Source: Alphaproteobacteria bacterium (GTDB lineage: Bacteria; Pseudomonadota; Alphaproteobacteria; MPNO01; UBA830). From it: 64,000 nt of DNA. The notes beneath the pieces were generated by a model, which was not told the origin of the DNA, searched no databases, and worked only from the letters and a program-made list of their open reading frames with translations. This document shows positions 1 through 16,774 of the stretch, piece after piece. A program made the position numbers and the translations under genes. The stretch lies in the NCBI GenBank assembly GCA_965243135.1, contig OZ251539.1, positions 2,080,001-2,144,000 on the forward strand, in the 5' to 3' direction. Position 1 is the first letter of the stretch. Each line of letters opens with the position of its first letter.

Positions 1-639
1 CCGGAGAAGCGAAAGCGTCTTGAGACGCTGTGGGGAGCGGAAATGTACGACCAGTTCGGTTGCACGGAAGGCTCGTTCATGGCGAGCGAGTCCGAACGCC
101 ATGACGGCCTGCATTTCTGGACGGACATGTTCGACCTCGAGGTCGTCGACGAAGAAACCCGCGAGCCGGTTTCCGAAGGCGGCACCGGCCTTCTTGTCAT
201 GACGCCCTACTGGAACAACGAGATGACCCCGTTCCTTCGCTGGGAAACCGGCGACTACGTGTCCGGCCCCTCGCGGGGCGCGACGGCCGGACCGCTATCG
301 GTGTACCCGGTGATCCGCCACGCCGCCCGCACGGCCGGCTTCTTCAAGGTGCGCGGCGTGAACGTCGGCCACGCCGATTTCGAGGACTTCATGCATCGCA
401 GGCTCGAGGTCGCGGATTTCAGGGTCGAGATCGTCGAGACGGACGGGCTCGACGCGATGCGGCTGGAGGTCGAGCTGCGGGAGGAAGCGACGCCCGAAGC
501 GGCGTCCAGCGCGCTTGTGTCCGACATTCGGCGGACGTTCGAGCTGACGCCCGAGTTGGAGTTGCTCAACCCCGGAACGCTGGAAAGGGAGTTCCGGACC
601 CAGGTCAAGCAGCAGCGCTTTGTCGACCGGCGCGGATGA
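1..639 (+). CDS. Phenylacetate-CoA ligase (PaaK)-like adenylate-forming enzyme, 5'-truncated by window edge
   Basis: Frame is open from base 1 (PEKRKRLETLWGAEMYDQFGCTE); motifs PFLRWETGD and R..FFKVRGVNV typical of the PaaK family. Confidence 0.8.
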   Translation, partial: PEKRKRLETLWGAEMYDQFGCTEGSFMASESERHDGLHFWTDMFDLEVVDEETREPVSEGGTGLLVMTPYWNNEMTPFLRWETGDYVSGPSRGATAGPLSVYPVIRHAARTAGFFKVRGVNVGHADFEDFMHRRLEVADFRVEIVETDGLDAMRLEVELREEATPEAASSALVSDIRRTFELTPELELLNPGTLEREFRTQVKQQRFVDRRG

Positions 640-1840
640 CGTCCCGCCCGCGGACGGGCGAGCCGACGGACCGGGAGTTTTCGTCGTCGGCACGGTTCTG
701 ACGCTTCTGATCGGCATTAACGCGGTCAGCACCGACACCCTCGCCCCGGGCGTGCCCGCGCTTCGCGACTACTTCGGTACGACCACGAGCGCAGCCAATC
801 TGGTCTTCACCGTTTACGTCTTCGCGTTCGGCGTCATGCAATTGCTTTACGGCCCGATCGCCGATCGCCTGGGACGGAGGCCGGTGCTGCTGGGCGCGAT
901 GGCCGTCTACGCCGTTGCGACGCTGCTGTGCAGCGTCGCCGAGGAGTTCGAACTTCTCCTCGCCGCCCGCTGTCTGCAAGGCGCCAGCGCGGGCGCCGCC
1001 CCTGCGCTGGCGCGGGCGGTGATCCGCGATCTCTACGGCCCCGAACGGTCCCGAAGCGTGATGAGTTACGTGATGTCGGCCTTCGGATTCGTGGCCGTCG
1101 CAGGTCCCCTTATCGGCGGATGGCTGGTCGCTTGGTACGGGTGGCGAACGTCCTTCTATTTCTGCGCGGTCTACGCGGTCGTCACGATCGTCGCGATCTA
1201 CGCGTTCCTCAAGGAATCCCGTCCCGCGGACGCGCCGACGGACTTCGCGTCCACTTTCGCCAGCTACGCGCGCATCGCTCCCTCGCCCGCGTTCCTGACG
1301 TATTGCTGCACCAACCTGTTCATGTACGCCGGAATGTACGCCTGGCTTGCGGGAAGCATGCTGGTTCTCGTGGACGCCTACGGATACCGCGAAGACGTTG
1401 CCGGAGCGCTCTTCGCAGTGAGTTCCGGCGGCTTCATGCTGGGAGCGTGGTCGGCGGGCCGACTCGGAGTACGCGTCGGCACCCCAAGGCTGATCCTGTC
1501 GGGCGCCGCGTGCGCCGTGTCGGCGGCCATCGTTCTCGTCGCCCTCGCCCTTGCGGGCGTTCGTTCCGGGACGGCCGTCGCGATCCCGGCCGCCGTCTGG
1601 ATGTTCGGCCACGGATTGCACTATCCGCATTCGATGGCCGCCGCCGTCTCCCCGTTTCCGCAATCGGCGGGGGCCGCCTCTTCATTGATCGGCTTCTTCC
1701 AAACTTCCGCCGGCGCGGTCGCCGCTTTCCTGGCAGGCCTGACCTACGACGGGACAGCCGTGCCGCTGGCCGCTCTGTTGCTGTCCTTCAGCGGCCTGGC
1801 GTTCCTCGCCTACGCGCCGTTCTTCCGTCGCTCCCCCTGA
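620..1840 (+). CDS. MFS efflux transporter, Bcr/CflA family
   Basis: About 12 hydrophobic segments; motif A GPIADRLGRRPVL; ARAVIRDLY. Confidence 0.85.
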   Translation: MSTGADDVPPADGRADGPGVFVVGTVLTLLIGINAVSTDTLAPGVPALRDYFGTTTSAANLVFTVYVFAFGVMQLLYGPIADRLGRRPVLLGAMAVYAVATLLCSVAEEFELLLAARCLQGASAGAAPALARAVIRDLYGPERSRSVMSYVMSAFGFVAVAGPLIGGWLVAWYGWRTSFYFCAVYAVVTIVAIYAFLKESRPADAPTDFASTFASYARIAPSPAFLTYCCTNLFMYAGMYAWLAGSMLVLVDAYGYREDVAGALFAVSSGGFMLGAWSAGRLGVRVGTPRLILSGAACAVSAAIVLVALALAGVRSGTAVAIPAAVWMFGHGLHYPHSMAAAVSPFPQSAGAASSLIGFFQTSAGAVAAFLAGLTYDGTAVPLAALLLSFSGLAFLAYAPFFRRSP

Positions 1841-1859
1841 GAACGGCCGCGCGGCGGCG

Positions 1860-2825
1860 TCACGCGCCGTCCTCGAAACGGTAGTAGTTGGCGAAGCGCA
1901 TCAGGAATTCATCCGTCATCGCGAAAAGGACGGAATCCTCGTCCGCGCTATGTTCGATCCAGTTCCAGATGGGCGCGACGAAGGCATCGCCGCGCGACCA
2001 TTCGATGGTCTCGTCGCCGATGCGCGACGTGCCGGAACCCATCATCGGACTGTAGACGACGTTCGCCGAATGACGGAATTTCCGCGTGGCGCAACCGCCG
2101 TCCAGCCTCTCGACGTAAATCCCGATGGTGGGCATCTCGTCCGCTTCCAGCCGCACGCGGGGCCCGAAGAAGCCTTCAGGGTCGGGTTCCGCGTCCTCGA
2201 TCCGTCCCAGGATCGTTTCCCAGGCGAAGCGGTAAGGCGAGTCGGGCGTGACCCGTTCGACGGGCGCGAAACCCTGCGGATGCTCCTCGAAGAACATCGG
2301 TTCGAGCAGGTGCGTCAACGGAACGTCGAGACCGTCCAGCCAATAGGCCGGCCGGTCGCCGTCGTGTCCGTGCCCGTGCCAGCACCAGCCCGGCGTGAGC
2401 ACGATGTCGCCCGTCTGCATCGGGTGCTTTTCGCCGTTGACGACGGAGTAGGAGTCCTCGCTGTCGATGATGACCCGCAGGGCGTGCGGCGCATGGCGAT
2501 GCGTTCGGGCCCGTTCCCCGGGCAGTATCATCTGATAGGCGTTGATCAGTGTTCTGGCGGTCGAGATGTCGTTGCCTTCCACCGGATTGCGCAGAATCAG
2601 GTTGCGGCGCTCGGCGAGTTCCGTGTTGATCAACCGCCCGGCGGCGTTCAGGGCGGCGAGGCATTCTTCGTAGCGCCAGTGCATCGGCTTGAACCGGGTG
2701 CCGGGTTCCGCGCGAAGAATCGCCCGTCGCCGGTCGATCCAGCCCGGCGTCATGTCCAGCGGTTCGAGGGCGGCGTAGAGTTGATCGAGGTTGCCCGCGT
2801 CCCGCAGCGTTTCGACCTTTTCCAT
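1860..2825 (-). CDS. Gentisate 1,2-dioxygenase-like bicupin ring-cleavage dioxygenase
   Basis: AERRNLILRNP, HRH and WHGH metal ligands, WLDGLDVP; start taken at MEKVETL. Confidence 0.85.
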   Translation of the reverse strand: MEKVETLRDAGNLDQLYAALEPLDMTPGWIDRRRAILRAEPGTRFKPMHWRYEECLAALNAAGRLINTELAERRNLILRNPVEGNDISTARTLINAYQMILPGERARTHRHAPHALRVIIDSEDSYSVVNGEKHPMQTGDIVLTPGWCWHGHGHDGDRPAYWLDGLDVPLTHLLEPMFFEEHPQGFAPVERVTPDSPYRFAWETILGRIEDAEPDPEGFFGPRVRLEADEMPTIGIYVERLDGGCATRKFRHSANVVYSPMMGSGTSRIGDETIEWSRGDAFVAPIWNWIEHSADEDSVLFAMTDEFLMRFANYYRFEDGA

Positions 2826-2946
2826 CTTTTCCTCCCTTTCGCCCGAAAACGCCGACCGTTTCGCGGCGTCGTTCCGCATGGTAGGCTGCGGCGGGCGGCC
2901 CGAATGATACCGGGTCGAGTCGACGGACGGAACAAGGACGAACGAA

Positions 2947-3669
2947 ATGGCCGAAGCGCGAAGCCGGGACGAGTTCCTCGCCGAGATGGAGAGGCGTTTC
3001 GAGGGGAAACGGCACTCGGATCACGCCATGGTCAAGATGATCGCCGACGGTACGGCGTCGCGCGCGCAGATCGGCTATCTGGCCGTGCTCTTCTACCATT
3101 TCACGAAATGGACGCCGCAGGTGATTTCGACCATTCATTCCCGCTGCGACGACCGCGCCGTGCGACGGCGCATCATGGACACGCTGATCGACGAGGACAC
3201 CGAACTCCGCTGCGGCTCCGCGGGACACGACGTGCTGGCCATGGATTTCGCGACTCGCTTCACGCGCCTTTCGCAGGAAGAGGTTGAACGCCACCCGGTG
3301 CCGGCCTGCCTCGAGAACATGACCGCCTACCGCTTCAGGATCGCTCGCGAGATGCCGGTCACGATCGCGCTGGGCAATTCCGGCGTCGCGTCGGAAAGCC
3401 ACGCGCCCGAAATGTGCCGGATGATCTCGGACGGGCTCCGCGAGCACTACGGCGTCGACGACGAACACCAGGAAAGCTGGATCGTGCATATCGAAGGCGA
3501 CGAAGACCATTCCGAGACCGCCTTGAAGACGGTCCTGGAGTTCTGCACCACGCGGGATCTTCAGGATCGGATGCTCTGGTGCATCGACGAATATCTTTCC
3601 CATTGGGCCAACTTCTGGAACGAGTGTCTCGCGGGAAAGTTGCGCGCTGCCGCGACGGCCGCCGAGTGA
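2947..3669 (+). CDS. Heme-oxygenase-like diiron oxidase (PqqC/CADD/TenA-like iron-containing redox enzyme)
   Basis: Helical protein with DED...GH, E..H and HIEGDEDH ligand pattern. Confidence 0.7.
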   Translation: MAEARSRDEFLAEMERRFEGKRHSDHAMVKMIADGTASRAQIGYLAVLFYHFTKWTPQVISTIHSRCDDRAVRRRIMDTLIDEDTELRCGSAGHDVLAMDFATRFTRLSQEEVERHPVPACLENMTAYRFRIAREMPVTIALGNSGVASESHAPEMCRMISDGLREHYGVDDEHQESWIVHIEGDEDHSETALKTVLEFCTTRDLQDRMLWCIDEYLSHWANFWNECLAGKLRAAATAAE

Positions 3670-4010
3670 AGGCCGTTCTTCGCCCGCTTCCGGCGAACGC
3701 GTCGGGAATTCCCCGCCTGACCGTCTGCGTGAACGATCGCGGACCGGACGCGATAACCCCGTCGTGCGGCCGGCGCAGCGGAACGCGCCTTCGCGACGCG
3801 ATCGCGGCCGCGGCGCGCGAAACGGGGATGGAAGTGCAGACGATCAGATGCCTCGGACTGTGCGACAAGGGGCCGAACGTGCGGCTCGCGCCCGGCAACA
3901 ACTGGTTTCACGCCGTCGATCCGTCCGACGCGCCGGCGCTCGTCGAGGCCGCGGTCGAACACATGGCGCCGCTTGCGGGGGCGGCGCGCGGCGCCGAAAC
4001 CAGTTCCTGA
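3666..4010 (+). CDS. Thioredoxin-like [2Fe-2S] ferredoxin
   Basis: GTG start overlaps the upstream TGA (GTGA); CVNDR...SCG...CLGLCDKGPNV cysteine pattern. Confidence 0.75.
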   Translation: MKAVLRPLPANASGIPRLTVCVNDRGPDAITPSCGRRSGTRLRDAIAAAARETGMEVQTIRCLGLCDKGPNVRLAPGNNWFHAVDPSDAPALVEAAVEHMAPLAGAARGAETSS

Positions 4011-4028
4011 GAAAATCGTTTTTCCCGC

Positions 4029-4056
4029 TGGAATTTTCCGGTCGGCGTGCTATATT
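4029..4056 (+). promoter_or_regulatory. Probable sigma70 promoter of tRNA-Asn
   Basis: TGcTATATT extended -10 at 4048-4056, 16 nt upstream of the tRNA; weak -35. Confidence 0.45.
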
Positions 4057-4072
4057 CCTTTCGTCCTGCTGA

Positions 4073-4148
4073 TCCTCGGTAGCTCAGCTGGTAGAGCAAG
4101 CGGCTGTTAACCGCTGGGTCGGGGGTTCGAGTCCCTCCCGGGGAGCCA
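4073..4148 (+). tRNA. tRNA-Asn (GTT)
   Basis: 76 nt cloverleaf: TCCTCGG acceptor, AGCTCAGCTGGTAGAGC D-arm, CTGTTAA anticodon loop, GGTTCGAGTCC T-arm, encoded CCA. Confidence 0.97.
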
Positions 4149-4155
4149 ATATCGA

Positions 4156-4188
4156 AAAGCGGCCGGAACCGGCGGTTCCGGCCGCTTT
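4156..4188. terminator. Bidirectional intrinsic terminator after tRNA-Asn
   Basis: Perfect 15-bp stem AAAGCGGCCGGAACC / GGTTCCGGCCGCTTT. Confidence 0.8.
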
Positions 4189-4429
4189 GACTTGACGACC
4201 GAGCTCCGCACAGCAAGCTGGCACCGGTCACGGATGGGCGCATCGTTCTCTGCCGGGTCGAAATGCCCGCCATAACCCTGTCAGCCCCTATACCGGCTAA
4301 TCGAACCTCGCACGGTTCGCTCGAAATGACTTCGCCGCAATGCGCTGTCACGGTAGGTCTTCTATGCGTCTGTGCTTCGACGGCGCAACGGCAATCTCAA
4401 GGGCGTACGGGCTCGCCCTGTTATCCCTC

Positions 4430-4669
4430 CTACACCGAATTACCATCTGGAGAAGTCTCGGGCCATCTGCCTACCGTCCAAACGGGCAGCGTCCCATCCT
4501 CGGCGCAGATGACCTTCAGCCACTCGTCCACTATCTCGCACAGTCGGTACACCGCCACTTCGTCGGTACCGTGACTGCACGGGCTGATGACCCCGGGGCA
4601 GGAACCGACAAAACATTGATCTTCGTCCGACCACTCGGCCCGTTTGACGTATCTCGCGCTGTCCTTCAC
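4430..4669 (-). CDS. HicB-like (RNase H-like fold) antitoxin-family small protein, orphan
   Basis: VKDSARYVKRAEWSDEDQCFVGSCPG...HGTDE...IVDEWL...DGTLP matches the HicB N-terminal pattern. Confidence 0.65.
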   Translation of the reverse strand: MKDSARYVKRAEWSDEDQCFVGSCPGVISPCSHGTDEVAVYRLCEIVDEWLKVICAEDGTLPVWTVGRWPETSPDGNSV

Positions 4670-4894
4670 GTTCGCGCTTCTTCTATCTTCAGCCGCACCT
4701 CTCGTTCCTGAAAGGGTTTGGCACCGTCCCCCTGATTTCCTGAGATCGTAACGCGCTGCGCCCTCGGGTGCCGACAATTCCTGTGGTGGTCCACTGTCCC
4801 GGCGATCCCCCGGCCATCCTGCCCAGAGATTGCCGACCGCCTGCCGTACGCTTCGGAATTAATCATGGGAGTTGAAAGGTGCGGGCGAGGAATA

Positions 4895-4952
4895 CGCACG
4901 TTCCCCCTTCTGGCGAAAATCTGGGCATCTTCGCCAGAAGGGGGAACGTGCG
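4895..4952. repeat. Perfect 23-bp inverted repeat with 12-nt loop
   Basis: CGCACGTTCCCCCTTCTGGCGAA (4895-4917) / TTCGCCAGAAGGGGGAACGTGCG (4930-4952), just downstream of the Type ISP stop. Confidence 0.9.
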
Positions 4953-4978
4953 GCTTCGGGTTATTCTATGTTAGACGC

Positions 4979-5611
4979 TCAGAAGGGATTGGGCAGCCCT
5001 TTGACTATCTCCACAGTGCGAACGCTCACCGTCGTCACTCTCTTTATCAGGTCCAAGATGTAACGAGGGTCGCCGATTTCGGTCGCCCAGTCGTTCGGAT
5101 CGTTGGTTATGCCGCTCTCCTTATGTGTTCTCATTCGATAGCGCTCGATTAGCCAGTCCAGTGCCGAGCGCGTTCCGAGGACGTATTCGTGAGCCTGGGG
5201 CGGTATGCCCGCTAGTGTCAGTCCCGCGTTGTATACGATCCGCGTCCTGTCTTGTTCATCACGTTTGCCCGGATACTTCATCTTGACAACTCTATAGGCG
5301 TCGGGCGAACGGGGATTCCATGCGCTGCTCCGGATTTCTTCCAGTGGGTATGGCTCGACGCTCTCGTAGCCGACATGCAATTCTGCCAATTTCAAGCCCG
5401 CTTGAGCGAAGGTGCGGAAGTCCTCGATGGAGGCTGTCATGGGAATCCGCGCTTGGGATTTCGCTAAATCATTGGCGAACGTTTCGCGCCATTGCGCCGA
5501 ATGTAAGACGCCATAGACGTAGTAGAAAAGGTCATCTTCGGTGATGCGGCTATCGCCGCATCGCGTGCGAAACTCCTCCAGCGCCCGCGGGTTGATGTTG
5601 CTGACGCGTTC
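4979..5611 (-). pseudogene. C-terminal part (target-recognition region) of the Type ISP R-M enzyme, out of frame with the main ORF
   Basis: Open frame ERVSNINPRAL...ITEDDLFYYVYGVLHS..WRETFANDLAKSQARIP...YVLGTRSALDWLIERY...SGITNDPNDW, the conserved Type ISP C-terminus, begins right after the homopolymer. Confidence 0.85.
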
Positions 5612-8600
5612 CGGGGGGGGGGGGGGGGGGGGGTAAGGGACGACCGCTGGTAGCGCCAGCGGGGGAGGTAAGGACTGGAACCGTTGCCACTGGTCAGTCC
5701 CGAATCCGAGATTGCGTTGGTCATTAGCGCCGAGAACGGAACGGAGGAGCCGGGACCGGTAATGTATATGCCTCGGTTTTCAGCTTCGATGTCAGGGTAG
5801 ATTTCTGGGAAGTCGCGGATGCTGTTGTTCAGCTTGCGATCGAAGTACAACCGCTGCTTGAAAAATGGGCGATAGGCACCGACGCGAAATCCGCTTTCGT
5901 CCACTCGGTAGCACTCGCCTTTGGCGAGGTCGCGGTAGTTTTTGGCGTCCCAATGGAATCGGCGCGGGTTTTTGGTAACGAATGCTTTTGCCTTGGCGGC
6001 TTGCACTGTCGCCAATCCGGACGAGTTGGTTTTTCGGAACTCCACTACCAGATCGTTGTAGTAAGCTATGCTACGGCGAATGTTATCTTGAAGTTGTTGT
6101 TGAGATGAGTTGAACGCCCAAGCGTCTCGGGAAGTCACCAGCCCCAGCGTTCTCTTCACGAAGATGGGCGCAGGTTCGCCCGGTGCTCCCGCAGCGTCGG
6201 ACGAGGAAAGAGGGTGAAACGTCTGGAAATCGTCACTTCGTTGCTCAATCCAGTCGCCATGCTTGTTTGGAACGACATCCGTCCAGTCGGTTTCGGCTAG
6301 ACTGCTCGCGCCCAGAATCTCAAGCTTCTGCTCTCGCGAGAGACAATCGCCGATATTTCGGTACCAGATACCGCGGCCTGCTGACTGCTTGACCAATATC
6401 AGGATGGCCACGCCTGCTTTGGTGGCACCTCCGAACACTCCGCCGCCTTCGCGCTGTCGCTTGTCGCCAGAAGTGTTCGCGTTTCCACGAAGGTTGTAGC
6501 AGTAGACGGCATCGAATTCCTCGGCCACCGCCTTGCGAAAGCCGTCGAAGGCGTTACTTCTAATGAACCCTCCGTTAGTGACGAAAGCGACTACTCCGCC
6601 CTTATCGTTCAGAATACGATCAGAGGCCAAGCGAATCGCCTTCACATAAGGATCATACAGCGCTGCCAGATGGTTCACATCGGACCTAGCCGCGTAACTC
6701 TCTTTCACCCTGCCGTCAATGCCCGGATATTCTCGATTGTTCGTTGCCGACCAAGGCGGATTGCCAATAACCACACGAATATCCAGTTTCCTCTGCCGTT
6801 CCATTCGCTCGTTGTTCGAAGGGATTAAGACGTCGTCCATCGGTGCCTTCGGCTCGTATGCTTGGAACGTGTCCGTCAAAACTCCGCCGCCGAATGGCGC
6901 ATACTCGTTGGCTCTCATGGCTTCATGGTAAGCGGATTCGATGTTGACCATGGCGATGTAGTATGCTAGCAACATTATTTCGTTGGCATGAAGCTCGCTT
7001 TCGTATTTGCGCTGCAGGTCTTCGCGCTCGATGAATCCGCTCTGGATCAGTCGCGTTATGAACGTCCCTGTTCCTACGAACGGATCTATAACGTGGACAT
7101 CCGCGTCTCCGAGCGACGCGCCGAACTTTGCATTCAACACGTTCTCTACGCTACGAATAATGTAGTCCACTACCTGAACCGGCGTGTAGGCGATACCTAG
7201 ATTTTTTGCGGTCTCCGGCAGCGCCTTCGTCAGGAATCGTTCATACAGCTCGGCGATTATCCTCTGTTTGCCCGCCGCTGTCGTCACGCCCTCCGCTCGG
7301 ATTCGCACGTCTCGATAGAACCGCTCCAGCCCCTCGGTTTCCCTCTCGAGCCCGTGGTCTTGGAGCGCATCTATCACGCCCTGCATGGCACGGGAGACGG
7401 GGTTACGTTTGACGAAGGCGTAATCCTCGAACAGTGCGTCGAACACAGGCTTTGACACCAGATGCTGGGAGAGCGTCCCAATAGCTTCGTCTTTGGTCAC
7501 GCCATCGTTCAGGTTGCTCCTCAGACCATTCAGAAATCGGTCAAACGCAGGGCGGACGCCGGAGTCGGGTATCGCCAGCAGCGCACGGATTCGCGCCTCG
7601 TGGCGCTCTGCTATCTCTCGAACCTTGTCCGCCCACTGCTCCCAGTAGTGCGGATTGGAGTATTTGTCCACAACCCTCGATAGAATAGCGTCTCGGAACT
7701 CTGGCGAGCCGCTGATTGCGAGCGGCAACTCCATCTGTTCGACGTCGATGACGACGTTTTCTCCAACGCCGATGTCCCCGCCTGCTGGGCTGCCTGTCGA
7801 CGGCTCCTCAGTCTTAGCGACCAGTTTCAGCTGGTTTATCTTCGCCTCGAACCTGTCGTCGTGCGCGGCGATGGCGTTGATGACCTGCCACACCGCCTTG
7901 TACGCCCCGTCGTTCACGGCATCCTGCGGCGACGAATCGGGTGCCCGTGCTATGGGCAGTATGATGTACCCGGCCCGCTTGCCCGCCGACTTCCGCATCA
8001 CTCTGCCCACCGCTTGCACTACGTCTATCTCCGAACTGCGCGGTTGCAGAAACATGATGGCGTCCAGCGCCGGGACGTCTATACCCTCCGTCAAACATCG
8101 GGCGTTGGTCAGGATGCGGGCACACCCCTCGTCCGGATCCTCCCGAAGCCACGCAAGGCTGGCCGAGCGTGTCATCGCGTTCTGCGTTCCGTCCACATGC
8201 CGAACTTCACAGCGGAGTTGGCCTTCGCTATCCCCCTCTTCCGCGTCCGCCGCCATGCAACTTTCGATCACCCGCGGGAAGTACTCCGCGAACGCTTCGG
8301 ACTGCGCTATCGAGTTGCTGAAGGCCACTGCTCGCTTGGCGGGCGAAAGGTCGCGTCCGAAGTCCAGCCCCGTCGCACCGCGCTTGCGGAGCGCGTTCCA
8401 GCACCCGACCATCCGAGCCCCGTTCTCCATGTTCAACTCGGAGCGGGATTCCGACAGCAACCCATGCAGATCCATCCCCACCTTCTGCAGGTCGACATCG
8501 AATATCAAGACCTTGTAGTCCGACAGGATGCTCATTTCGATGGCTTTGCCGAATCCGAGACGGTGAAACTCCGGCCCAAACATACCCTCGTCGTCCATCG

Positions 8601-9813
8601 AGGCGAGCGTGACCCTGCCATCGTCGTTCGCCTTTTGCTTCACGGCGTCTCCGTAGATGCGCGGGGTAGCGGTCATGTACAGCCGCTTTTCGCCAGCAAT
8701 GAAGCCGTTGTCGTGAACTCGACGAAAGTTGGACTCGGTTTCGCCGGCGAGAGTCGCACCGGTGGTTCGGTGCGCCTCGTCGCAAATTATCAGGTCGAAC
8801 TTCGGAAGCCCCATCCCCTGCGCTTCGGACACAGAGGGCAGCGATTGGTATGTGGAGAATACGACCGACATGGCGGAGTCGCTCTTGGCGTTGCGGAGTC
8901 GCTCCGCGAGAGTCGCCGCGTCGGTGGACGCGGGCAGAGGCAGGTCGAAAGGCGAGATATCGCCATCGTCGTCCCGCAGCCTGCTCGCGCTAGCGTCAGA
9001 GCATACCGCAAACGGCTTGAGGGGAATGTCCGCATCGTTCACCCAATCTCTGAGCGACTGCGACAGCAGCGATATGGACGGCGTGAGGAACAGAACGTCG
9101 CCGCCAACGCCAGCAACTCTCTCCGCTATGCGGAGCGCCGTGAAAGTCTTGCCGGAACCGCAGGCCATTATCAGCTTGCCGCGCTCATTTTTGGCGAAGC
9201 CTTTGAGCGTGTCTTCCAGTGCCAATTGCTGGTATTCGCGCAGTTCCTTGTTCGCTTTTCGGACCAGCGCTCTTGGACGTGCGAGGCTGAAATCTTCCCA
9301 GTTTATAGACGAATTCTCGAATACTTGCGGACCCCAGCGGGAGACGGGTTTATCACCTCGTCCGCGAAGGGCATCCTCGGAGTTTCTGCCCCATTTGTCG
9401 GTTGTGGAGACAAACACGCCGCCAACGAACTCGTCGGTGGAGTACGCGGCTAAGAATTTGTTGACCTCTGGGAGCGATATGGTCGCACTGGGCGCGTAGA
9501 ACTTACATTGGATGGCTACCAACCCGCCCCTGTCGCGCTCCCTCGCCACGAGGTCTATGCCCGTATCCTGCCGTCCCCTTCTATCTGGATACTCCGACCA
9601 CAGCCAAACCCTGTCGAACCGCAACGCCTGCCCCTTGTCCGTCTCGATGAACGCCTTGACCAGCGCCTCGAATACGCGCCCCTTCTCGGACGAGTTTCGA
9701 GATTTGGACGCCAGAACTTCGAGAACGTTCTGGAAAGAGGTCGGCGGTTCATGCTCGTACTGCGGAAAAAGGACGGACATTCGATTTTGCGGGTCGTTCA
9801 GGTTCATTATCAT
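5464..9813 (-). CDS. Type ISP restriction-modification enzyme (Mrr-like nuclease + SF2 helicase + N6-adenine MTase), frameshifted near the 3' end
   Basis: QDTGIDLVA...AIQCK nuclease; MACGSGKT and DEAH helicase motifs; DPFVGTGTF and NPPW MTase motifs; YNLRGN; LlaGI/LlaBIII architecture. Confidence 0.92.
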   Translation of the reverse strand: MIMNLNDPQNRMSVLFPQYEHEPPTSFQNVLEVLASKSRNSSEKGRVFEALVKAFIETDKGQALRFDRVWLWSEYPDRRGRQDTGIDLVARERDRGGLVAIQCKFYAPSATISLPEVNKFLAAYSTDEFVGGVFVSTTDKWGRNSEDALRGRGDKPVSRWGPQVFENSSINWEDFSLARPRALVRKANKELREYQQLALEDTLKGFAKNERGKLIMACGSGKTFTALRIAERVAGVGGDVLFLTPSISLLSQSLRDWVNDADIPLKPFAVCSDASASRLRDDDGDISPFDLPLPASTDAATLAERLRNAKSDSAMSVVFSTYQSLPSVSEAQGMGLPKFDLIICDEAHRTTGATLAGETESNFRRVHDNGFIAGEKRLYMTATPRIYGDAVKQKANDDGRVTLASMDDEGMFGPEFHRLGFGKAIEMSILSDYKVLIFDVDLQKVGMDLHGLLSESRSELNMENGARMVGCWNALRKRGATGLDFGRDLSPAKRAVAFSNSIAQSEAFAEYFPRVIESCMAADAEEGDSEGQLRCEVRHVDGTQNAMTRSASLAWLREDPDEGCARILTNARCLTEGIDVPALDAIMFLQPRSSEIDVVQAVGRVMRKSAGKRAGYIILPIARAPDSSPQDAVNDGAYKAVWQVINAIAAHDDRFEAKINQLKLVAKTEEPSTGSPAGGDIGVGENVVIDVEQMELPLAISGSPEFRDAILSRVVDKYSNPHYWEQWADKVREIAERHEARIRALLAIPDSGVRPAFDRFLNGLRSNLNDGVTKDEAIGTLSQHLVSKPVFDALFEDYAFVKRNPVSRAMQGVIDALQDHGLERETEGLERFYRDVRIRAEGVTTAAGKQRIIAELYERFLTKALPETAKNLGIAYTPVQVVDYIIRSVENVLNAKFGASLGDADVHVIDPFVGTGTFITRLIQSGFIEREDLQRKYESELHANEIMLLAYYIAMVNIESAYHEAMRANEYAPFGGGVLTDTFQAYEPKAPMDDVLIPSNNERMERQRKLDIRVVIGNPPWSATNNREYPGIDGRVKESYAARSDVNHLAALYDPYVKAIRLASDRILNDKGGVVAFVTNGGFIRSNAFDGFRKAVAEEFDAVYCYNLRGNANTSGDKRQREGGGVFGGATKAGVAILILVKQSAGRGIWYRNIGDCLSREQKLEILGASSLAETDWTDVVPNKHGDWIEQRSDDFQTFHPLSSSDAAGAPGEPAPIFVKRTLGLVTSRDAWAFNSSQQQLQDNIRRSIAYYNDLVVEFRKTNSSGLATVQAAKAKAFVTKNPRRFHWDAKNYRDLAKGECYRVDESGFRVGAYRPFFKQRLYFDRKLNNSIRDFPEIYPDIEAENRGIYITGPGSSVPFSALMTNAISDSGLTSGNGSSPYLPRWRYQRSSLTPPPPPPRNASATSTRGRWRSFARDAAIAASPKMTFSTTSMASYIRRNGAKRSPMI
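5613..5633. repeat. G21/C21 homopolymer inside the Type ISP gene
   Basis: 21 consecutive G on + strand; located at the frame switch. Confidence 0.95.
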
Positions 9814-9829
9814 GTTTCATTTCCCTTAA

Positions 9830-10030
9830 TGTGTTGCTAACCCTGAGCTACAGTTCGGTCACATCGTTCCGCGAATCGAAGATTTTTGCGCGGCAGCCCT
9901 CGCCGCTCGAGATTTCGCGCCGAGGGCGGCCTCGTATCGCCCTGTCATCACGCCCTGATGCCCGAACGAGGAATGGTCACGTCGCGACAGGATAACAGCG
10001 CGAGTCCGGGGGAACCATACCCAAAGTTAT
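9830..10030 (+). repeat. Structured dispersed repeat, copy A
   Basis: Shares AACC.(C/T)GAGC, CGTTCCGCGA, CTCGCCG, GCCCGAACG.GGAA.GGT and GCGCGAG.CCG blocks with copies B and C, and CCATACCC.AAGTTAT with copy C. Confidence 0.75.
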
Positions 10031-10563
10031 ATACTGTCGTTAACGGACGATATGACCGATCCATGTACCAAATGATCTGTCCAGATATGGAACGCTTCCA
10101 GACCAAGGCGGCGGCGGCGGGCGGAACAGTTACAGGGACTGAGGGGGGCGAGAGGTGTCGCACCCGTATGCCGAGCCAAGGCGAAGCGGCATGGGCGTTT
10201 CGGAGCGCACCTTCCGACAATGTCGCAGGGCGAGCCGCCGCGTCCGCGTGCGACACATCCGAAAAATGTCTGTCATCAGTCGGCCAGCCGTTCGCCGAAC
10301 CCCAGCATGATCGGGGACAACACCGGCAGAATCCCGCAGCGTGAACAGGCAGACATGCGCTCCGCCCGGCGCTGTCCTTCTCATTAACCCCGGCCGCCGA
10401 GTGCTGCGTGCCGTCTACGGTGCGGTTTCGTAGCGCCGGACTCGTACTTCGCCGCAATGCTGCTTCCAGGATGCCTCCAGCGTTGTCGACCGCGCCCGGC
10501 AGGTTGAAGGCGAAACTACGGACGGACTGGCCAAGTATCGAGATGCCGGGCTATCCTCGCTGC

Positions 10564-10884
10564 ATGTCAGACAACGTGGTAACGCTCGACCTCGCTCGTT
10601 TCACGGCGACCGACGCCAAAAAGATCGAGGAGCTGCAACGGAAGCTCCGGATGATGCGCAGATGGTGTCGCTTCGACCGGGTCGAGAAGGACGGCGCCGA
10701 GGCGGTCCATCTTTATTCCGGTGACCGGGGCCGGCAACCTTACGCAAGCTATCGGCTTTCCCGTTCGAAAACAGGCGTCTACGAGCTCTTCGACGGCCGA
10801 TCAGGCGACAAGCTGGCCGTCGGAAGAACGGTGGACGACGTCATCGACGCCCTTCCCGAGGATTTCTACCACTCGCGATATTAG
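10564..10884 (+). CDS. Hypothetical protein
   Basis: 106-aa ORF (MSDNVVTLDLARF...) with host-like codon usage. Confidence 0.65.
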   Translation: MSDNVVTLDLARFTATDAKKIEELQRKLRMMRRWCRFDRVEKDGAEAVHLYSGDRGRQPYASYRLSRSKTGVYELFDGRSGDKLAVGRTVDDVIDALPEDFYHSRY

Positions 10885-10928
10885 GGAGGACGCCCTTCCC
10901 CGACGGACTTCGCGCCGAAACCGCGCCG

Positions 10929-11432
10929 TCAGTGGTGGTCTCCCTTCATCGCCCCCGCTGCCTGGACGACGACTCTTGCGGTGCGTTTCCCGGCCTTTTC
11001 GAAAACGAGATCGAGATCGAACCGTTCTCCTTTTTCCAGTGGCTTCCGGAGCCCCATCAACATCAAGTGATACCCGCCCGGACGAAATTCCACCGTCCGG
11101 CCGGCGGGCACGTCCACGCCGTCGACCTTCCGCATGCGAAAGACGCCGTTATCCTCGACATGCGTATGGATCTCTGTGCGTCTCGCGATCTCGCACGCCG
11201 CCGCGATCAGGCGGTCGCTGCGGTTTCCTTCGCCGACCAGCGAAAAATAGACGGCGCTCGTCTTGCCGCGGGAGGCGCGGGCCCAGGGAACGCGGATCGA
11301 AGGGCCGGCCGTCTCGTCGCGCATGTGTTGCGCCTGCTTGCCCGCGCCGTGTTCGTGCGCCGACGCAGGCGCTTCGGCGAAGGCGGCTGCGCCTAGAAGG
11401 ACGCACGTCGCCAGCATGCGAATACTCGTCAT
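10929..11432 (-). CDS. Periplasmic copper chaperone PCu(A)C
   Basis: Signal peptide; WARAS, EIHTH...MRKV, PGGYHLMLMGL. Confidence 0.9.
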   Translation of the reverse strand: MTSIRMLATCVLLGAAAFAEAPASAHEHGAGKQAQHMRDETAGPSIRVPWARASRGKTSAVYFSLVGEGNRSDRLIAAACEIARRTEIHTHVEDNGVFRMRKVDGVDVPAGRTVEFRPGGYHLMLMGLRKPLEKGERFDLDLVFEKAGKRTARVVVQAAGAMKGDHH

Positions 11433-11570
11433 GTCCGACTTCTCCGTGTCTTGCGGCCCTGCGCAGGGCGGACGCGGCGGCCGAATGCGCCGCCGGCCCG
11501 CAACGCGCCGCGCCCGAACGGCGAAACGAATCACCCGCGTTGTCGCCTGCGCGGAACCCGAACGCCGGCG

Positions 11571-12764
11571 TCAGCGGGAAGCCGCGCTCGCCTTTCCTCC
11601 CTGCCGCAACAATTTCATTCCGGTCTCCAGCCCCTCGGTCGTCAGCGGGAACATTCGTCCGTCGAGTATCCTGTAGGTGATTCGTATGCTCGGGGTCGGC
11701 ATCCAGCGTTCGGGCGGCGTGGGATTGAACCAGACCGCATTGGGATAGGCGGCGAGGAACCGACGCAGCCAGACCTCGCCCGGCTCCTCGTTCCAATGCT
11801 CGATCGAACCGCCCACTTCGGAGATTTCGTATGGACTCATCGTGGCGTCGCCGACGAAGATGACCTTCCAGTCGGGACCGTAGGTATTCATCAGTTCCCA
11901 GGTCGGAATCCATTCGTTGTAGCCGCGCCTGTCATGCCGCCACACGCGTTCGTAAAGGAAATTGTGGAAATAGTAATACTCGAGATGCTTGAACTCGGAG
12001 CGCGCCGCGGAAAAAAGCTCCTCCGAAATCCTGACGAAGCTGTCCATCGAACCGCCGATATCGAACAGCGTGAGAACCTTGACCTTGTTCTTCCGCTCGG
12101 GCCGCATCTTTATGTCCAGCATGCCCGCGTGATCCGCGGTGGAACGGATCGTGCCGTCCAGGTCGAATTCCTCCTCGGCGCCCTCGCGAACGAACTTGCG
12201 CAACTTGCGCAAGGCGATCTTGATATTGCGGGTGCCGAGTTCCACGTCGCCCTTGAGGCTCCGGAACTCTCGCTTCTGCCACACCTTGGTCGCGCTCTTG
12301 CCGCCGCCCTCGCCGCCGATGCGCACGCCGGCGGGGTTGCGTCCGGAGTTTCCGAATGGCGAGGTGCCGCCGGTCCCGATCCACCTGTTGCCGCCGTGAT
12401 GGGCGCGATTCTGTTCCTGCAGCCGCTTGGCGAGTTCGTCCATCAGTTCGCGAAAGTTCATGGCCTCGATTTCGTTCTTGTCGAACAGTTCGCGCGCGAG
12501 GCCGCGCAGCCAGTCCTCGGGAATTTCCTCCTCCAGAAGTCCCGATGTCTTGTTCATCGCGCCCTTGAAGAAATTCTCGAACACGAGATCGAAGGTGTCG
12601 AACCAGCGCTCGTCCTTCACCAGGGCGGCGCGGGCCAGGAAATAGAACTCGTCGACCCCGGCGCGAGCCACTCCTTTGTCCAGCGCCTCGAGAAAGGTCA
12701 GATACTCCCGGATCGTAACCGGGATCCGGGCTGAGCGCAGTTGATAGAAGAAATCGACGAACAT
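11571..12764 (-). CDS. vWA-domain (CoxE-like) protein
   Basis: HHGGNRWIGTGGTSPFG, DIGGSM MIDAS motif, FVGDATMSPYE. Confidence 0.9.
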   Translation of the reverse strand: MFVDFFYQLRSARIPVTIREYLTFLEALDKGVARAGVDEFYFLARAALVKDERWFDTFDLVFENFFKGAMNKTSGLLEEEIPEDWLRGLARELFDKNEIEAMNFRELMDELAKRLQEQNRAHHGGNRWIGTGGTSPFGNSGRNPAGVRIGGEGGGKSATKVWQKREFRSLKGDVELGTRNIKIALRKLRKFVREGAEEEFDLDGTIRSTADHAGMLDIKMRPERKNKVKVLTLFDIGGSMDSFVRISEELFSAARSEFKHLEYYYFHNFLYERVWRHDRRGYNEWIPTWELMNTYGPDWKVIFVGDATMSPYEISEVGGSIEHWNEEPGEVWLRRFLAAYPNAVWFNPTPPERWMPTPSIRITYRILDGRMFPLTTEGLETGMKLLRQGGKASAASR

Positions 12765-12783
12765 GGAACGTCCTGCGGCGCGC

Positions 12784-13626
12784 CTACGCCCCCTGCCGTC
12801 GCGACATGAACGCGAGGCGCTCGAACAGATGCACGTCCTGCTCGTTCTTGAGCAGCGCGCCGTAGAGCTGAGGGATGGCTTTCGTGGAATCGGCGCGCAG
12901 CGCATCCGGATCGATGTCTTCGGCAAGCAGCAGCTTGATCCAGTCGAGAAGTTCCGATGTCGACGGTTTCTTTTTCAGTCCGTTGACGCCGCGAACGGAG
13001 AAAAACACTTCCAGCGATTCCTTGAGCAGGCGCTTCTTCATGCCGGGAAAATGGACCTCGACGATCTTTTCCATGGTCTCGCGTTCGGGAAAGCGGATGT
13101 AATGAAAGAAGCAACGGCGCAAAAACGCGTCCGGCAGTTCCTTTTCGTTGTTCGACGTGATGATCACGACCGGCCTGCATATCGCCCGAACCGTCTCCTG
13201 AGTTTCGTAGACGTAAAACTCCATGCGATCGAGTTCCCGCAGCAGATCGTTCGGGAACTCGATGTCGGCCTTGTCCACCTCGTCGATGAGCAGCACGGCC
13301 TGCTTCTCCGAGGTGAACGCCTCCCAAAGCATGCCCCTCTTGATGTAATTGCGGATGTCGTGGACGCGATCGTCGCCCAACTGGGAATCGCGCAGCCGCG
13401 ACACGGCATCGTACTCGTAGAGGCCGTGATTCGCCTTGGTGGTCGACTTCACGTGCCACTCGAAGAACGGCATGTCCAGCGCCGCCGCGACCTCCATCGC
13501 GAGCAGGGTTTTTCCCGTTCCGGGTTCGCCCTTGACGAGAAGCGGGCGTTCGAGGGTGATCGCGGCGTTCACCGCGGTCATTAGGTCGTCTGTCGCGACA
13601 TAGGTGTCGGTGCCGGTGAACTTCAT
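12784..13626 (-). CDS. MoxR-family AAA+ ATPase
   Basis: GEPGTGKT Walker A, LLIDEVDKAD Walker B, ELPDAFLRRC. Confidence 0.92.
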   Translation of the reverse strand: MKFTGTDTYVATDDLMTAVNAAITLERPLLVKGEPGTGKTLLAMEVAAALDMPFFEWHVKSTTKANHGLYEYDAVSRLRDSQLGDDRVHDIRNYIKRGMLWEAFTSEKQAVLLIDEVDKADIEFPNDLLRELDRMEFYVYETQETVRAICRPVVIITSNNEKELPDAFLRRCFFHYIRFPERETMEKIVEVHFPGMKKRLLKESLEVFFSVRGVNGLKKKPSTSELLDWIKLLLAEDIDPDALRADSTKAIPQLYGALLKNEQDVHLFERLAFMSRRQGA

Positions 13627-13702
13627 GCTGCGCACTTCTTGACTGGGGGAGGTTTCTGCAACCTAATGCACCCCCTGCCCTCGATCAAGCGAAACTGCTG
13701 CC

Positions 13703-14158
13703 ATGATATCCGTCGCCCTCGCTCTCCACCTGCTCGCCGCCACCGTCTGGGTGGGCGGCATGTTCTTCGCGATCTTGGTGCTGCGCCCGGCGGCCGGCGA
13801 GATGGAGCCTGCGGTGCGCGCGCCGCTCTGGGGGCGGGTGTTCGCGAAGTTCTTTCCATGGGTCTGGACGGCGGTGGCGATCCTGCTCGCGACCGGATAC
13901 TGGATGATCTTCAGCGTCTGGGGAGGTTTCGGCGCCCTGCCCCTCCACGGGCATCTGATGCACGGCATCGGATGGATCATGGTCGCCATCTACCTTCTTT
14001 TGTGGTTCGCGCCCTACAAGCGGTTCCGGACGGCACTGAGCGAAGGCGACATTCCGGGCGCTGGCCGGCAGCTCAACCGGATACGCCAACTGGTGACGAC
14101 GAATCTCGCGATAGGCCTGATCAACGCGGCGATCGGCGCGACCGGCCGGTACTGGTGA
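13703..14158 (+). CDS. CopD-like/DUF4149 membrane protein
   Basis: HLLAATVWVGGMFFA; four TM helices. Confidence 0.75.
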   Translation: MISVALALHLLAATVWVGGMFFAILVLRPAAGEMEPAVRAPLWGRVFAKFFPWVWTAVAILLATGYWMIFSVWGGFGALPLHGHLMHGIGWIMVAIYLLLWFAPYKRFRTALSEGDIPGAGRQLNRIRQLVTTNLAIGLINAAIGATGRYW

Positions 14159-14305
14159 AGAGGCTGGCGCGGAACGGCGCGTTGGGGCGGACGCGCCGAC
14201 AAACCCAGTTTCGGCCTCGGAAACGTCCGCCGCAGCCCTGTCGGCAGGGTTGCCCCGTTCGCCGGCGCGCTTCATAAAGAAGCGGTCTGCAACGGAGAAA
14301 GCCGC

Positions 14306-15289
14306 ATGAAAACACGCAAGCTCGGCAACAGCGACCTCGAGGTTTCGGAAATCGGCCTCGGCTGCATGACCATGACCGGAATCTACGGCCCCGCGGACGA
14401 TGGGGAATCGGTCGCGACGATACGTTCGGCGCTCGACGCTGGCGTCAACTTCGTCGATACGGCGGACGCCTACGGCAACGGCTCCAACGAGGAGCTCGTC
14501 GGCCGCGCGATCGCCGGGCGGCGCGACGAGACGGTGCTCGCGACCAAGTTCGGCAACATTTACGCGCGCGACCCGGACCGCGGCGCGGACGGCAGGCCGG
14601 AATACGTGCGGGAAGCTTGCGATGCCAGCCTTCGGCGCCTCGGCGTCGAGGTCATCGACCTCTACTTTCAGCACCGCGTCGACCGCGAGGTGCCGATCGA
14701 AGAAACGGTGGGCGCGATGGCCGATCTCGTGAAGGAAGGAAAGGTGCGCTGTCTCGGGTTGTCGGAGTGCTCGTCCGAAACCCTGCGCCGGGCGCACCGG
14801 GTCCACCCGATTTCGGCGCTCCAGAGCGAGTTGTCGCTTTGGACCCGGTTCGCGTTGACCGACCAGATCGTCGTCTGCCGCGAACTCGGCGTCACTTACG
14901 TGGCCTATTCCCCGCTCGGTCGCGGAATGCTGACCGGAGCCATCGGGAGCGAGGCCGACATGCCGGCGAAGGATCGGCGCCGCGATCACCCGCGCTTCCA
15001 GGGCGACAACCTGAAGCACAACGTGGCGATCGCCGCGCCGATCAAGGCGCTCGCCGCCGCGAAGGGCTGCACGCCCGCGCAGATCGCGCTCGCCTGGGTT
15101 CTCGCCCAGGGCCCGGATATCCTGCCCATTCCCGGATGCAAGCGAGTCCGGCACCTGGAACTCAACGTCGCGGCCGCGGAAATGGAACTCGCCGACGACG
15201 AACTTGAGGAACTGAACGACTCGATACCGCCGGACTTCGTCACGGGCAACCGCTATCCGGACGCGCAGATGTGGACGGTCGATCTCTGA
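14306..15289 (+). CDS. Aldo/keto reductase
   Basis: [30 protein letters not shown]. Confidence 0.95.
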
Positions 15290-15300
15290 AGAGCTCCCGC

Positions 15301-15885
15301 ATGCCCGACGGCGTCGAAATCGTCGAGCGGAAGTCCGTCCGCGACGGCTACGCGCAGGTCTGCGAGTACCGGCTGCGGCACCGGCTGTACGACGGAGGCT
15401 GGTCGGGCGAAATCAAGCGGGAACTGGTGGAGCGCGGAAACGCCGTCGCCGTGCTTCCCTACGACCCGCGGCGCGACCGGGTCGTGCTGGTCGAGCAGTT
15501 CCGCATCGGGGCTTACGCGGCGGGACTGCCGCCGTGGCAGCGGGAGATCCCGGCGGGCATGGTCGAAGGCGGCGAACCGGAAGACGGCGTCGCCCGGCGG
15601 GAAACGCGCGAGGAATGCGGCTGCGAAGTCCGGAAACTGCATCGAATCTGTCGCGTCCTTTCGAGTTCCGGGATATTGTCCGAAATCGTCGCCATCTACT
15701 GCGGCATAGTGGACGCTTCGGAAGCGGGCGCGGCCTGCGGGCTCGCCGACGAAGACATACGCGTGACGACGCTCGCGGCGGAAGACGCGCTGCGGCCGGA
15801 CGCCTCTTTCCATTACGCTCCAGGCGTCATCGCGCTTCAGTGGCTGGCGGCGAACCGCGCGAGGCTGCGGAAGGAGGAGTACTGA
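15301..15885 (+). CDS. nudF: ADP-ribose pyrophosphatase (NUDIX)
   Basis: RELVERGNAVAVLPYDP, EQFRIG, Nudix box GMVEGGE...ARRETREECG. Confidence 0.85.
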   Translation: MPDGVEIVERKSVRDGYAQVCEYRLRHRLYDGGWSGEIKRELVERGNAVAVLPYDPRRDRVVLVEQFRIGAYAAGLPPWQREIPAGMVEGGEPEDGVARRETREECGCEVRKLHRICRVLSSSGILSEIVAIYCGIVDASEAGAACGLADEDIRVTTLAAEDALRPDASFHYAPGVIALQWLAANRARLRKEEY

Positions 15886-15886
15886 C

Positions 15887-16723: not shown

Positions 16724-16774
16724 GCCCGGAGACGCTATGGTGCGGCGACTTCCCGTCTCCCGGTTTCGGAATCC

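Follow-up and report, generated by a model that had tools for sequence, protein, structure and literature searches.

A predicted Type ISP restriction-modification (R-M) gene in a 64,000-nt stretch of an alphaproteobacterial genome (assembly GCA_965243135.1, contig OZ251539.1, positions 2,080,001 to 2,144,000; hereafter the window) is broken exactly at a run of 21 C residues, and we consider it probable (roughly 0.75) that this tract is a slipped-strand on/off switch of the gene, assembled in the off state. For R-M genes of Types I, IIG, and III in small-genome, host-adapted pathogens, such repeat-driven switches are textbook knowledge. The initial annotation of this DNA had already proposed a slipped-strand switch, and the proposal is now supported by a genome rich in G/C tracts, by two Type ISP paralogs with tracts of different length (G11 and G17), by a homolog truncated at the same site in the other wrong frame, and by a pair of homologs that differ as on and off forms. 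Coordinates of all features are collected in Table 1.

A 21-nt C tract separates two frames of one gene

Both sides of the junction were as the initial annotation had described them and can be read directly from the sequence. Specifically, the 1449-aa open reading frame (ORF) reads ...RWRYQRSSLT-PPPPPP-RNAS... and then continues into out-of-frame residues, and the frame that opens at position 5611, right after the tract, reads ERVSNINP...NDPNDW... for 210 aa up to a stop at 4979. When the tract length was varied in silico, C19, C22, and C25 gave a single open frame of 1610, 1611, and 1612 aa, respectively; C18, C21, and C24 led to a stop near residue 1449, and C17, C20, and C23 to a stop near residue 1420. 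Gain or loss of one unit therefore toggles between full-length and truncated products in these translations of C17 to C25, and the earlier rule that the tract must be 3n+1 nt long, with C19 or C22 restoring a protein of ~1610 aa and no other visible lesion, holds with the motifs intact. The tract lies inside an ORF and exceeds the contingency-locus threshold of at least 9 nt for mononucleotide repeats given in the accessible portion of PMC7383803. Every one of the 10 overlapping 12-mer matches found across the window falls within it (mean of 0.05 in dinucleotide-preserving shuffles), and the second-longest homopolymer in the 64 kb measures 7 nt.

Apart from the tract, the gene is predicted to encode an intact Type ISP enzyme

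Read as one gene across the two frames, the sequence matches Pfam families in the order Mrr_cat_2, ResIII/DEAD/Helicase_C, ISP_coupler, N6_Mtase, and Type_ISP_C, which is the domain set and order of a Type ISP single polypeptide: nuclease, superfamily 2 (SF2) ATPase, coupler, gamma-class N6-adenine methyltransferase, and C-terminal target recognition domain (TRD). Enzymes of this class recognize asymmetric sites, place m6A on one strand, translocate along DNA with ATP, and cut where two head-to-head enzymes collide. The tract cuts the Type_ISP_C profile in two, with positions 2–157 upstream and 166–342 downstream. The best solved relatives, LlaBIII (4xqk, E-value of 1.9e-284) and LlaGI (5ffj, E-value of 1.3e-280), match near full length; the LlaBIII alignment spans residues 41–1391 of the upstream piece and 22–207 of the downstream piece, and the downstream piece matches the C-termini of LlaGI and LlaBIII with E-values of 3.5e-39 and 1.1e-34, respectively. 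Residues that we take to be the nuclease D...QxK (GIDLV...IQCK), Walker A (GSGKT), DEAH, FxGxG (FVGTGTF), and NPPW (GNPPW) motifs are all present, and in a 35-sequence alignment they fall on invariant columns (Q102 C103 K104, G219–T223, D345–H348, G914–G916, and N1018–P1020). At the level of predicted domains, these comparisons confirm a LlaBIII/LlaGI-like Type ISP enzyme that is intact apart from the C tract.

A different account would be that a horizontally acquired Type ISP gene has been inactivated and is decaying, with the tract incidental to its loss. The gene has a GC content of 58% vs 65% for the genome, for which reason it was probably acquired horizontally, and it stands alone among housekeeping-type genes; moreover, Type ISP genes frameshifted without repeats are reported for Helicobacter pylori in the available text of PMC3936762. 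However, there is no second lesion to be seen in the 4.8-kb gene, the 210-aa tail contains no stop codon even though it is out of frame and still matches Type_ISP_C with an E-value of 5.4e-57, the catalytic motifs are intact, the tract site recurs in a 90% ortholog and in more distant homologs (see below), and a length of 21 nt is far beyond chance. We give decay hardly any chance and favor a tract that switches an otherwise intact gene. Among species-representative genomes, the closest homologs (61–63% identity) belong to Chloroflexota/Dehalococcoidia metagenome-assembled genomes (MAGs).

The tract lies in the TRD core, past the recognition loops

According to the accessible part of PMC4872093, the LlaBIII TRD consists of a core (residues 1205–1244 and 1291–1448), a jaw (1245–1288), and a guide (1448–1578); recognition loops IV–VI lie at LlaGI residues 1223–1230, 1324–1331, and 1365–1374, and the guide subdomain, against which the core packs, reads no bases. 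The tract maps between LlaBIII residues 1377 and 1402, i.e., within the TRD core, past loop VI and before the guide. The linker that it occupies, from LPRWRY to ERVSNINP, is unconserved and measures 11–21 aa in the homologs compared (L001, L002, L003, L156, L157, P0122, and P0125), and by this alignment it is the kind of site predicted to tolerate an insert of P6–P7.

The off-state product retains all three recognition loops but stops before the core is complete and has no guide at all; this truncation most likely inactivates target binding and, hence, both methylation and restriction. Because the tract lies past loops IV–VI and the part lost is the core end plus the conserved guide, it would serve as an on/off switch for the whole enzyme and not as a specificity switch. 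The initial annotation had envisaged an on/off switch acting on the specificity region, of which the on/off action and the location within the TRD stand; the idea that the tract changes specificity was ruled out, as it lies downstream of the loops and what is lost is the guide subdomain.

The genome carries a large set of G/C tracts

The window sits in a single contig of 6,103,318 bp (65% GC), and RpoB places the organism in the Alphaproteobacteria, with best matches in a Thalassospiraceae MAG (76%) and Azospirillum (75%) and no closely related named organism among the matches listed. This genome (G000) contains 62 G/C tracts of 9–21 nt (loci L014–L075) vs 8 A/T tracts of 9–10 nt. The number of G/C tracts is 80 at 7 nt, 14 at 8 nt, 7 at 9 nt, 5 at 10 nt, 5 at 11 nt, and 45 at 12–21 nt, a bimodal distribution whose second mode goes beyond what composition alone would give. 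The claim that the C21 tract is the only long homopolymer is thus true of the 64-kb window and not of the genome, and we regard the genome-wide set as the strongest evidence for a switch, outweighing uniqueness within the window. Windows of 12 nt consisting of G/C tracts are patchily distributed among relatives: they number 198 in this genome and 448, 61, 1, and 0 in four genus-mates, and at least one occurs in 19 of 41 genomes.

The open frames that touch a tract were classified with Pfam and PADLOC. The R-M/defense genes found in this way comprise three full Type ISP genes and at least 10 others. Two of the latter are Type III mod homologs and candidates for classical phasevarions: L034, with G18 inside a 1023-aa frame (PADLOC MTase_III, E-value of 1e-147), and L075, with C21 inside a 1081-aa frame (E-value of 5.5e-283). 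Tracts are also found in Type IIG genes, one of which (L040) is split exactly at C16, with the PADLOC profile continuous over the two frames (positions 2–340 before the tract and 368–1104 after it). In L015, L017, and L030, G/C tracts of 15–17 nt are carried by Mrr-nuclease and helicase fusions that are 30–37% identical to the N-terminal half of the C21 gene and whose N-terminal parts match the PADLOC fusion profile "REase_MTase_IIG"; at the tract of L030 the frame gives way to an ORF that resembles a methyltransferase weakly, and no family matches the C-terminal ORF of L015. An HmaB/DUF1156 methylase, a C5 methylase, and an ISP_C fragment bear tracts as well.

Outside R-M and defense, tracts lie in or at the end of the frames of five autotransporters (L019, L031, L032, L069, and L071) and two LapA/Calx-beta giant adhesin-like genes (L016 and L018), in two GT2 glycosyltransferases and an RmlD-like gene, and at promoter-like positions before small nitrile-hydratase-alpha-like ORFs. 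The tract-bearing genes are a mix of in-frame and out-of-frame states. By predicted family, this gene set is classical phasome content, and the genome seems to house a large collection of contingency loci in a bacterium that is not one of the classical host-adapted pathogens. The setting in host-adapted bacteria from which the initial annotation had argued is accordingly only partly appropriate: the repeat mechanism carries over, but the organism, a 6.1-Mb, 65% GC alphaproteobacterium, is not a classical small-genome host-adapted pathogen. The 13 R-M/defense loci, a group defined after the tracts had been seen, cover ~46 kb (~0.75% of the genome) and hold 13 of the 62 tracts; a cleaner comparison is that between the Type ISP genes of this genome (3/3 with a tract) and those of other species (1/84).

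Tracts recur in Type ISP paralogs and in relatives

The three full Type ISP genes were identified by tblastn together with PF18135. The two paralogs of the C21 gene are L029, which carries G11 and is frameshifted (off), and L041, which carries G17 and is in frame (on). They are 90.4% identical over 4856 nt and least alike (76–83%) in the TRD core region, and their G tract occupies a common site in the methyltransferase domain (...IEEAFHG-Gn-YEPFNG...). Because the C21 gene has no tract at that site, the Type ISP genes of this one genome have acquired tracts at no fewer than two distinct positions.

Relatives gave a similar variety. The Type ISP gene of genus-mate G004 (L006) contains G9 (4019–4027), which coincides with a break of the frame between coupler and methyltransferase, and also C13 (1464–1476) 38 nt upstream of the ATG, i.e., two tracts in one gene. 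In order-mate G033, the L029/L041 site has G7 and a broken frame, and the Type ISP gene of G039 has no tract. Tracts are rare in Type ISP genes overall: of 84 loci in other species, a single one, L002, contains a G/C tract of at least 8 nt within the gene, and one more has G9 just upstream of the gene.

The same linker site is interrupted in other organisms

A protein search with residues 1150–1449 returned 287 matches, and the homologs described here come from the best 120 of these, with the tract states of P0003, P0027, P0053, and P0122 deduced from the protein ends. P0003, from a 7.3-kb metagenome contig and 90% identical overall, is truncated at the tract site, and its wrong frame is not the one found in the window gene but the other, its end reading ...IPRWRYQRSPLAAPPPPPGGARQQH (short form ...PPPPPGGARQQH). 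P0027 ends ...HLPSHIYTPPPPPQLV*, just past PPPPP at the site of the C21 tract. P0053 (1390 aa, truncated) ends ...RYLRPSVPPPAIPIV*, and P0122 (1607 aa, full length) reads ...RYLRPSAPPPPQSQLFDNSQLQRVSNINP... through the linker; the two proteins, which are more distant homologs of the C21 gene product, share a 90%-identity cluster and differ at the poly-P in this linker, making them an on/off pair. In the Dehalococcoidia MAG locus L002 (7050–7330), C9 is found at the same linker site, the frame changes twice, and 43 aa of the TRD (query residues 1346–1388/1397) are repeated, a duplication that could stem from recombination between Type ISP genes or from an assembly error. The presence of tracts at this linker site is independent of their exact length.

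Tract length in public sequencing data

Eight public sequencing runs hold the stretch or part of it as assembled contigs, and four of these (X4, X5, X6, and X8) were compared here; X1–X3 are sponge and other metagenomes with word shares of 0.09–0.26. In X4, one Logan contig of 3783 nt at a depth of 25 crosses the tract as G21 with 0 differences. Two contigs of X5 stop at 5633 and 5616, contigs of X6 stop at 5630 and 5635, and the nearest X8 contig among those listed ends at 5588. High depth in bin 5585–5761 reflects poly-G contigs of other loci and is uninformative.

These contigs bear on whether the tract length was miscalled, in which case the true dominant length would be in frame (C22 or C19), the gene simply expressed, and the break an assembly or consensus error. 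The single 6.1-Mb contig suggests a long-read assembly, a type that mis-sizes 21-nt homopolymers, and the X5 and X6 contigs end at the tract. However, the X4 contig reads exactly G21 with 0 gaps, and other tract-bearing genes of the same assembly are in frame (e.g., L041 with G17, L075 with C21, and L034 with G18), indicating no systematic assembly bias toward broken genes. A miscall is therefore unlikely in our judgment and, even if correct, would alter the assembled state only, leaving the switch itself in place. The X5 and X6 contig ends are also compatible with heterogeneity in tract length.

Long homopolymers are known to cause transcriptional slippage, mainly shown for A/T tracts, and poly-proline stalls ribosomes. 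On this basis, one could propose that RNA polymerase slippage or ribosomal frameshifting on C21/poly-Pro yields some full-length enzyme irrespective of tract length in the DNA, such that the tract tunes the level of the enzyme instead of switching it. However, transcriptional slippage on G/C tracts is, to our knowledge, poorly documented, none of the eight public runs holding the stretch is RNA, and the mixed in-frame and out-of-frame states among paralogs and orthologs fit DNA-level switching. We judge expression-level slippage very unlikely and retain slipped-strand switching at the DNA level as the favored explanation.

Several observations weigh against such a switch. Contig breaks at a homopolymer can be technical, X4 may be the assembly's own data, and contigs, the only form of the data, do not demonstrate that tract length varies among cells of a population. 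Where database proteins differ as on and off forms, the difference is at assembly level, with several proteins probably from long-read MAGs, in which homopolymer length errors are common and could mimic it. Scanning for at least 9 C within 30 nt upstream of the RVSNIN-coding motif found 0 Type ISP genes in genome_contigs and JGI metagenomes (1 match in the former and 2 in the latter, all 3 by chance), and a JGI metagenome scan with P0001 found no relative. Both mutS and mutL are present and uninterrupted in the genome, and intact copies would damp slippage. The truncated protein retains its three recognition loops, and its loss of function is a matter of deduction. Lastly, the comparison of orthologs for the tract, which the initial annotation had recommended, gave a divided answer: the 90% ortholog P0003 and the P0053/P0122 pair speak for a switch, but among 40 relatives searched there is no close ortholog of the C21 gene (best outside its own genome 48% identical), and for this reason conservation of the tract within the lineage cannot be followed.

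Proposed mechanism

We propose that a hypermutable C tract in a length-tolerant TRD linker governs expression of the Type ISP enzyme. Slipped-strand mispairing at replication would alter the tract length; lengths of 3n+1 would give the full enzyme with a P6–P7 linker, and other lengths would give a protein that ends before the TRD core end and the guide, with methylation and restriction both most likely lost. The assembled C21 would represent the off state. The locus would be one of ~60 G/C-tract contingency loci, at least 13 of them in R-M/defense genes, and the population would probably hold a shifting mix of restriction barriers, with phage defense set against DNA uptake and the cost of self-restriction. 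Slippage itself, its reversibility, the loss of function in the truncated form, and a benefit to the population are what we infer here, and a phasevarion role for the locus is possible.

On a wider and tentative view, to which we give slightly less than even odds, this may be a large-genome, repair-proficient lineage with a ~60-locus G/C phasome, in which every Type ISP gene and at least 10 other R-M/defense genes (Type III mod, Type IIG, HmaB, and C5 methyltransferase) would be independent stochastic switches that create thousands of combinatorial defense/methylome states per population. Since nuclease and methylase share one chain, each Type ISP off-to-on event would expose an unmethylated chromosome to the cell's own enzyme, and cells that survive such events would have to possess some built-in safety margin, whether methylate-first or collision-limited.

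Comparison with known systems

Tracts in Campylobacter are ~8–13 nt long, in bacteria that are not known to have mutS/mutL-type repair. The Campylobacter genome is small and low in GC, whereas the genome described here is 6.1 Mb with 65% GC, tracts of up to 21 nt, and both mutS and mutL. The two phasomes are alike in having many G/C tracts in genes for surface structures, glycosylation, and R-M; in Campylobacter, one of these is a Type IIG R-M gene (PMC6321876 and PMC8355987).

LlaGI and LlaBIII (Lactococcus plasmids; PDB 5ffj and 4xqk) are, like the product of the C21 gene, six-domain single polypeptides with the same Pfam set, but they run straight through the linker region (~8 residues in LlaGI), where the C21 gene has its frame-breaking tract. 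Type III mod phasevarions of Haemophilus, Neisseria, Helicobacter, and Moraxella, as far as described in the material available, resemble the C21 gene in that a repeat within the ORF toggles an R-M gene bearing a methyltransferase. In Type III systems, however, Mod is a protein distinct from Res and can methylate by itself, whereas a Type ISP enzyme has nuclease, motor, methylase, and TRD in one chain, and a switch in it would therefore remove all activities together. Repeats likewise occur in the Type I genes hsdS, hsdM, and hsdR, often between TRD halves, with truncation by frameshift (PMC7383803, accessible portion); a truncated HsdS can dimerize and alter specificity, for which the monomeric Type ISP enzyme has no equivalent. 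The REBASE survey in that paper covers hsdR, hsdM, and hsdS, and its main text contains 0 instances of "ISP". The H. pylori Type ISP genes HP0667-HP0669 and JHP0612-0613 are frameshifted in sequenced strains, as is the C21 gene, but their frameshifts are described as "not due to sequence repeats" in the accessible part of PMC3936762, whereas the C21 gene breaks exactly at a 21-nt repeat.

A review (PMC12707154), in its accessible text, mentions phase-variable Type I and III systems. The literature searched, which did not extend to subscription journals, yielded no description of a Type ISP gene switched by a repeat; the initial annotation likewise did not know such a switch to be well described for this class. 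The type of mechanism is known; what is new, as far as these searches reach, is the enzyme class together with the size and setting of the phasome.

If the proposal is correct, repeat-driven switching extends to Type ISP enzymes, with a single slippage event removing or restoring restriction, translocation, methylation, and recognition together. This would raise the question of how a cell survives switching on a fused enzyme over an unmethylated genome, and a methylate-first or collision-limited safety margin would be directly testable in this organism, which would offer a culturable model since isolate sequencing runs exist. Contingency loci would also be expected more widely, including in a 6.1-Mb, 65% GC, mutS/mutL-positive alphaproteobacterium with tracts of up to 21 nt. 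For annotation, a practical consequence is that an R-M gene labeled "frameshifted" in a genome of this kind should not be recorded as a pseudogene.

Table 1. Features of the Type ISP gene in the window and other tract-bearing loci of the genome
Feature	Coordinates	Strand	Remarks
Whole Type ISP R-M gene	4979..9813	−	two reading frames joined at the C tract
C21 homopolymer (G21 on the + strand), candidate slipped-strand switch	5613..5633	−	P6-P7 when in frame
Upstream ORF as assembled, predicted off-state product	5464..9813	−	1449 aa; last 49 residues out of frame past the tract
Downstream frame, TRD core end and guide subdomain	4979..5611	−	210 aa and stop; Type_ISP_C positions 166-342, E 5.4e-57
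Mrr-like nuclease domain	9274..9630	−	residues 62-180; Pfam Mrr_cat_2, E 6.4e-33
SF2 helicase-like ATPase	7990..9249	−	Pfam ResIII residues 189-385, Helicase_C residues 530-608; GSGKT and DEAH readable
ISP coupler domain	7273..7647	−	residues 723-847; Pfam ISP_coupler, E 2.2e-45
N6-adenine methyltransferase domain, Pfam-matched part	6730..7263	−	residues 851-1028; N6_Mtase; DPFVGTGTF and GNPPW readable
First TRD half, 5' of the tract	5638..6165	−	residues 1217-1392; Type_ISP_C positions 2-157; maps to LlaBIII up to residue 1377
Inverted repeat, 16 bp, perfect	4901..4946	−	14-nt loop; 33 nt past the ISP stop; read from sequence; no T run
L029, full Type ISP gene	G000:C1:737937-743196		G11, frameshifted (off)
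L041, full Type ISP gene	G000:C1:2857555-2862462		G17, in frame (on)
L015, Mrr-helicase fusion	G000:C1:81570-86130		
L017, Mrr-helicase fusion	G000:C1:177247-179100		
L030, Mrr-helicase fusion	G000:C1:791417-796034		
L034, Type III mod homolog	G000:C1:1264794-1267868		
L075, Type III mod homolog	G000:C1:6056192-6060114		
L040, Type IIG gene	G000:C1:2226038-2230509		
ttttgtcacgatggc context sites	G000:C1 around 419006, 448899, 477004, 5407825, 5425744, 5759341		
aaattagggtt... context sites	G000:C1 around 230426, 2208758, 3781408, 3806182, 4921345, 5147512		

Genomic neighborhood and recurring tract contexts

The Type ISP gene is solitary. One flank holds an MFS transporter, a cupin, and a haem-oxygenase-like gene, and the other holds PCuAC, a MoxR-like AAA/VWA pair, and an aldo-keto reductase. 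Among the 33 ORFs in positions 1–18073 of the window, we found no partner R-M gene, integrase, or transposase; flanking repeats were not systematically searched. The inverted repeat that follows the gene is possibly a transcript-end hairpin. The promoter and terminator scan returned nothing above shuffle expectation and did not call this repeat.

Two sequence contexts recur beside tracts elsewhere in the genome. The context ...ttttgtcacgatggc-Gn-cg(cg)aaaaaaggaat... occurs six times with tracts of 12–18 nt (L024–L026, L062, L065, and L073), at the 5′ ends of ORFs of ~160–330 aa without a Pfam match, which suggests a paralogous family with variable promoter/leader tracts. A second context, aaattagggtt..., stands beside tracts of 11–16 nt at L019, L039, L049, L052, L059, and L060. 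At three of these sites, the adjoining frames have weak nitrile-hydratase-alpha-like matches and resemble leader peptides of ribosomally synthesized and post-translationally modified peptides (RiPPs). Another tract (L050) is adjoined by a C39-peptidase ABC exporter.

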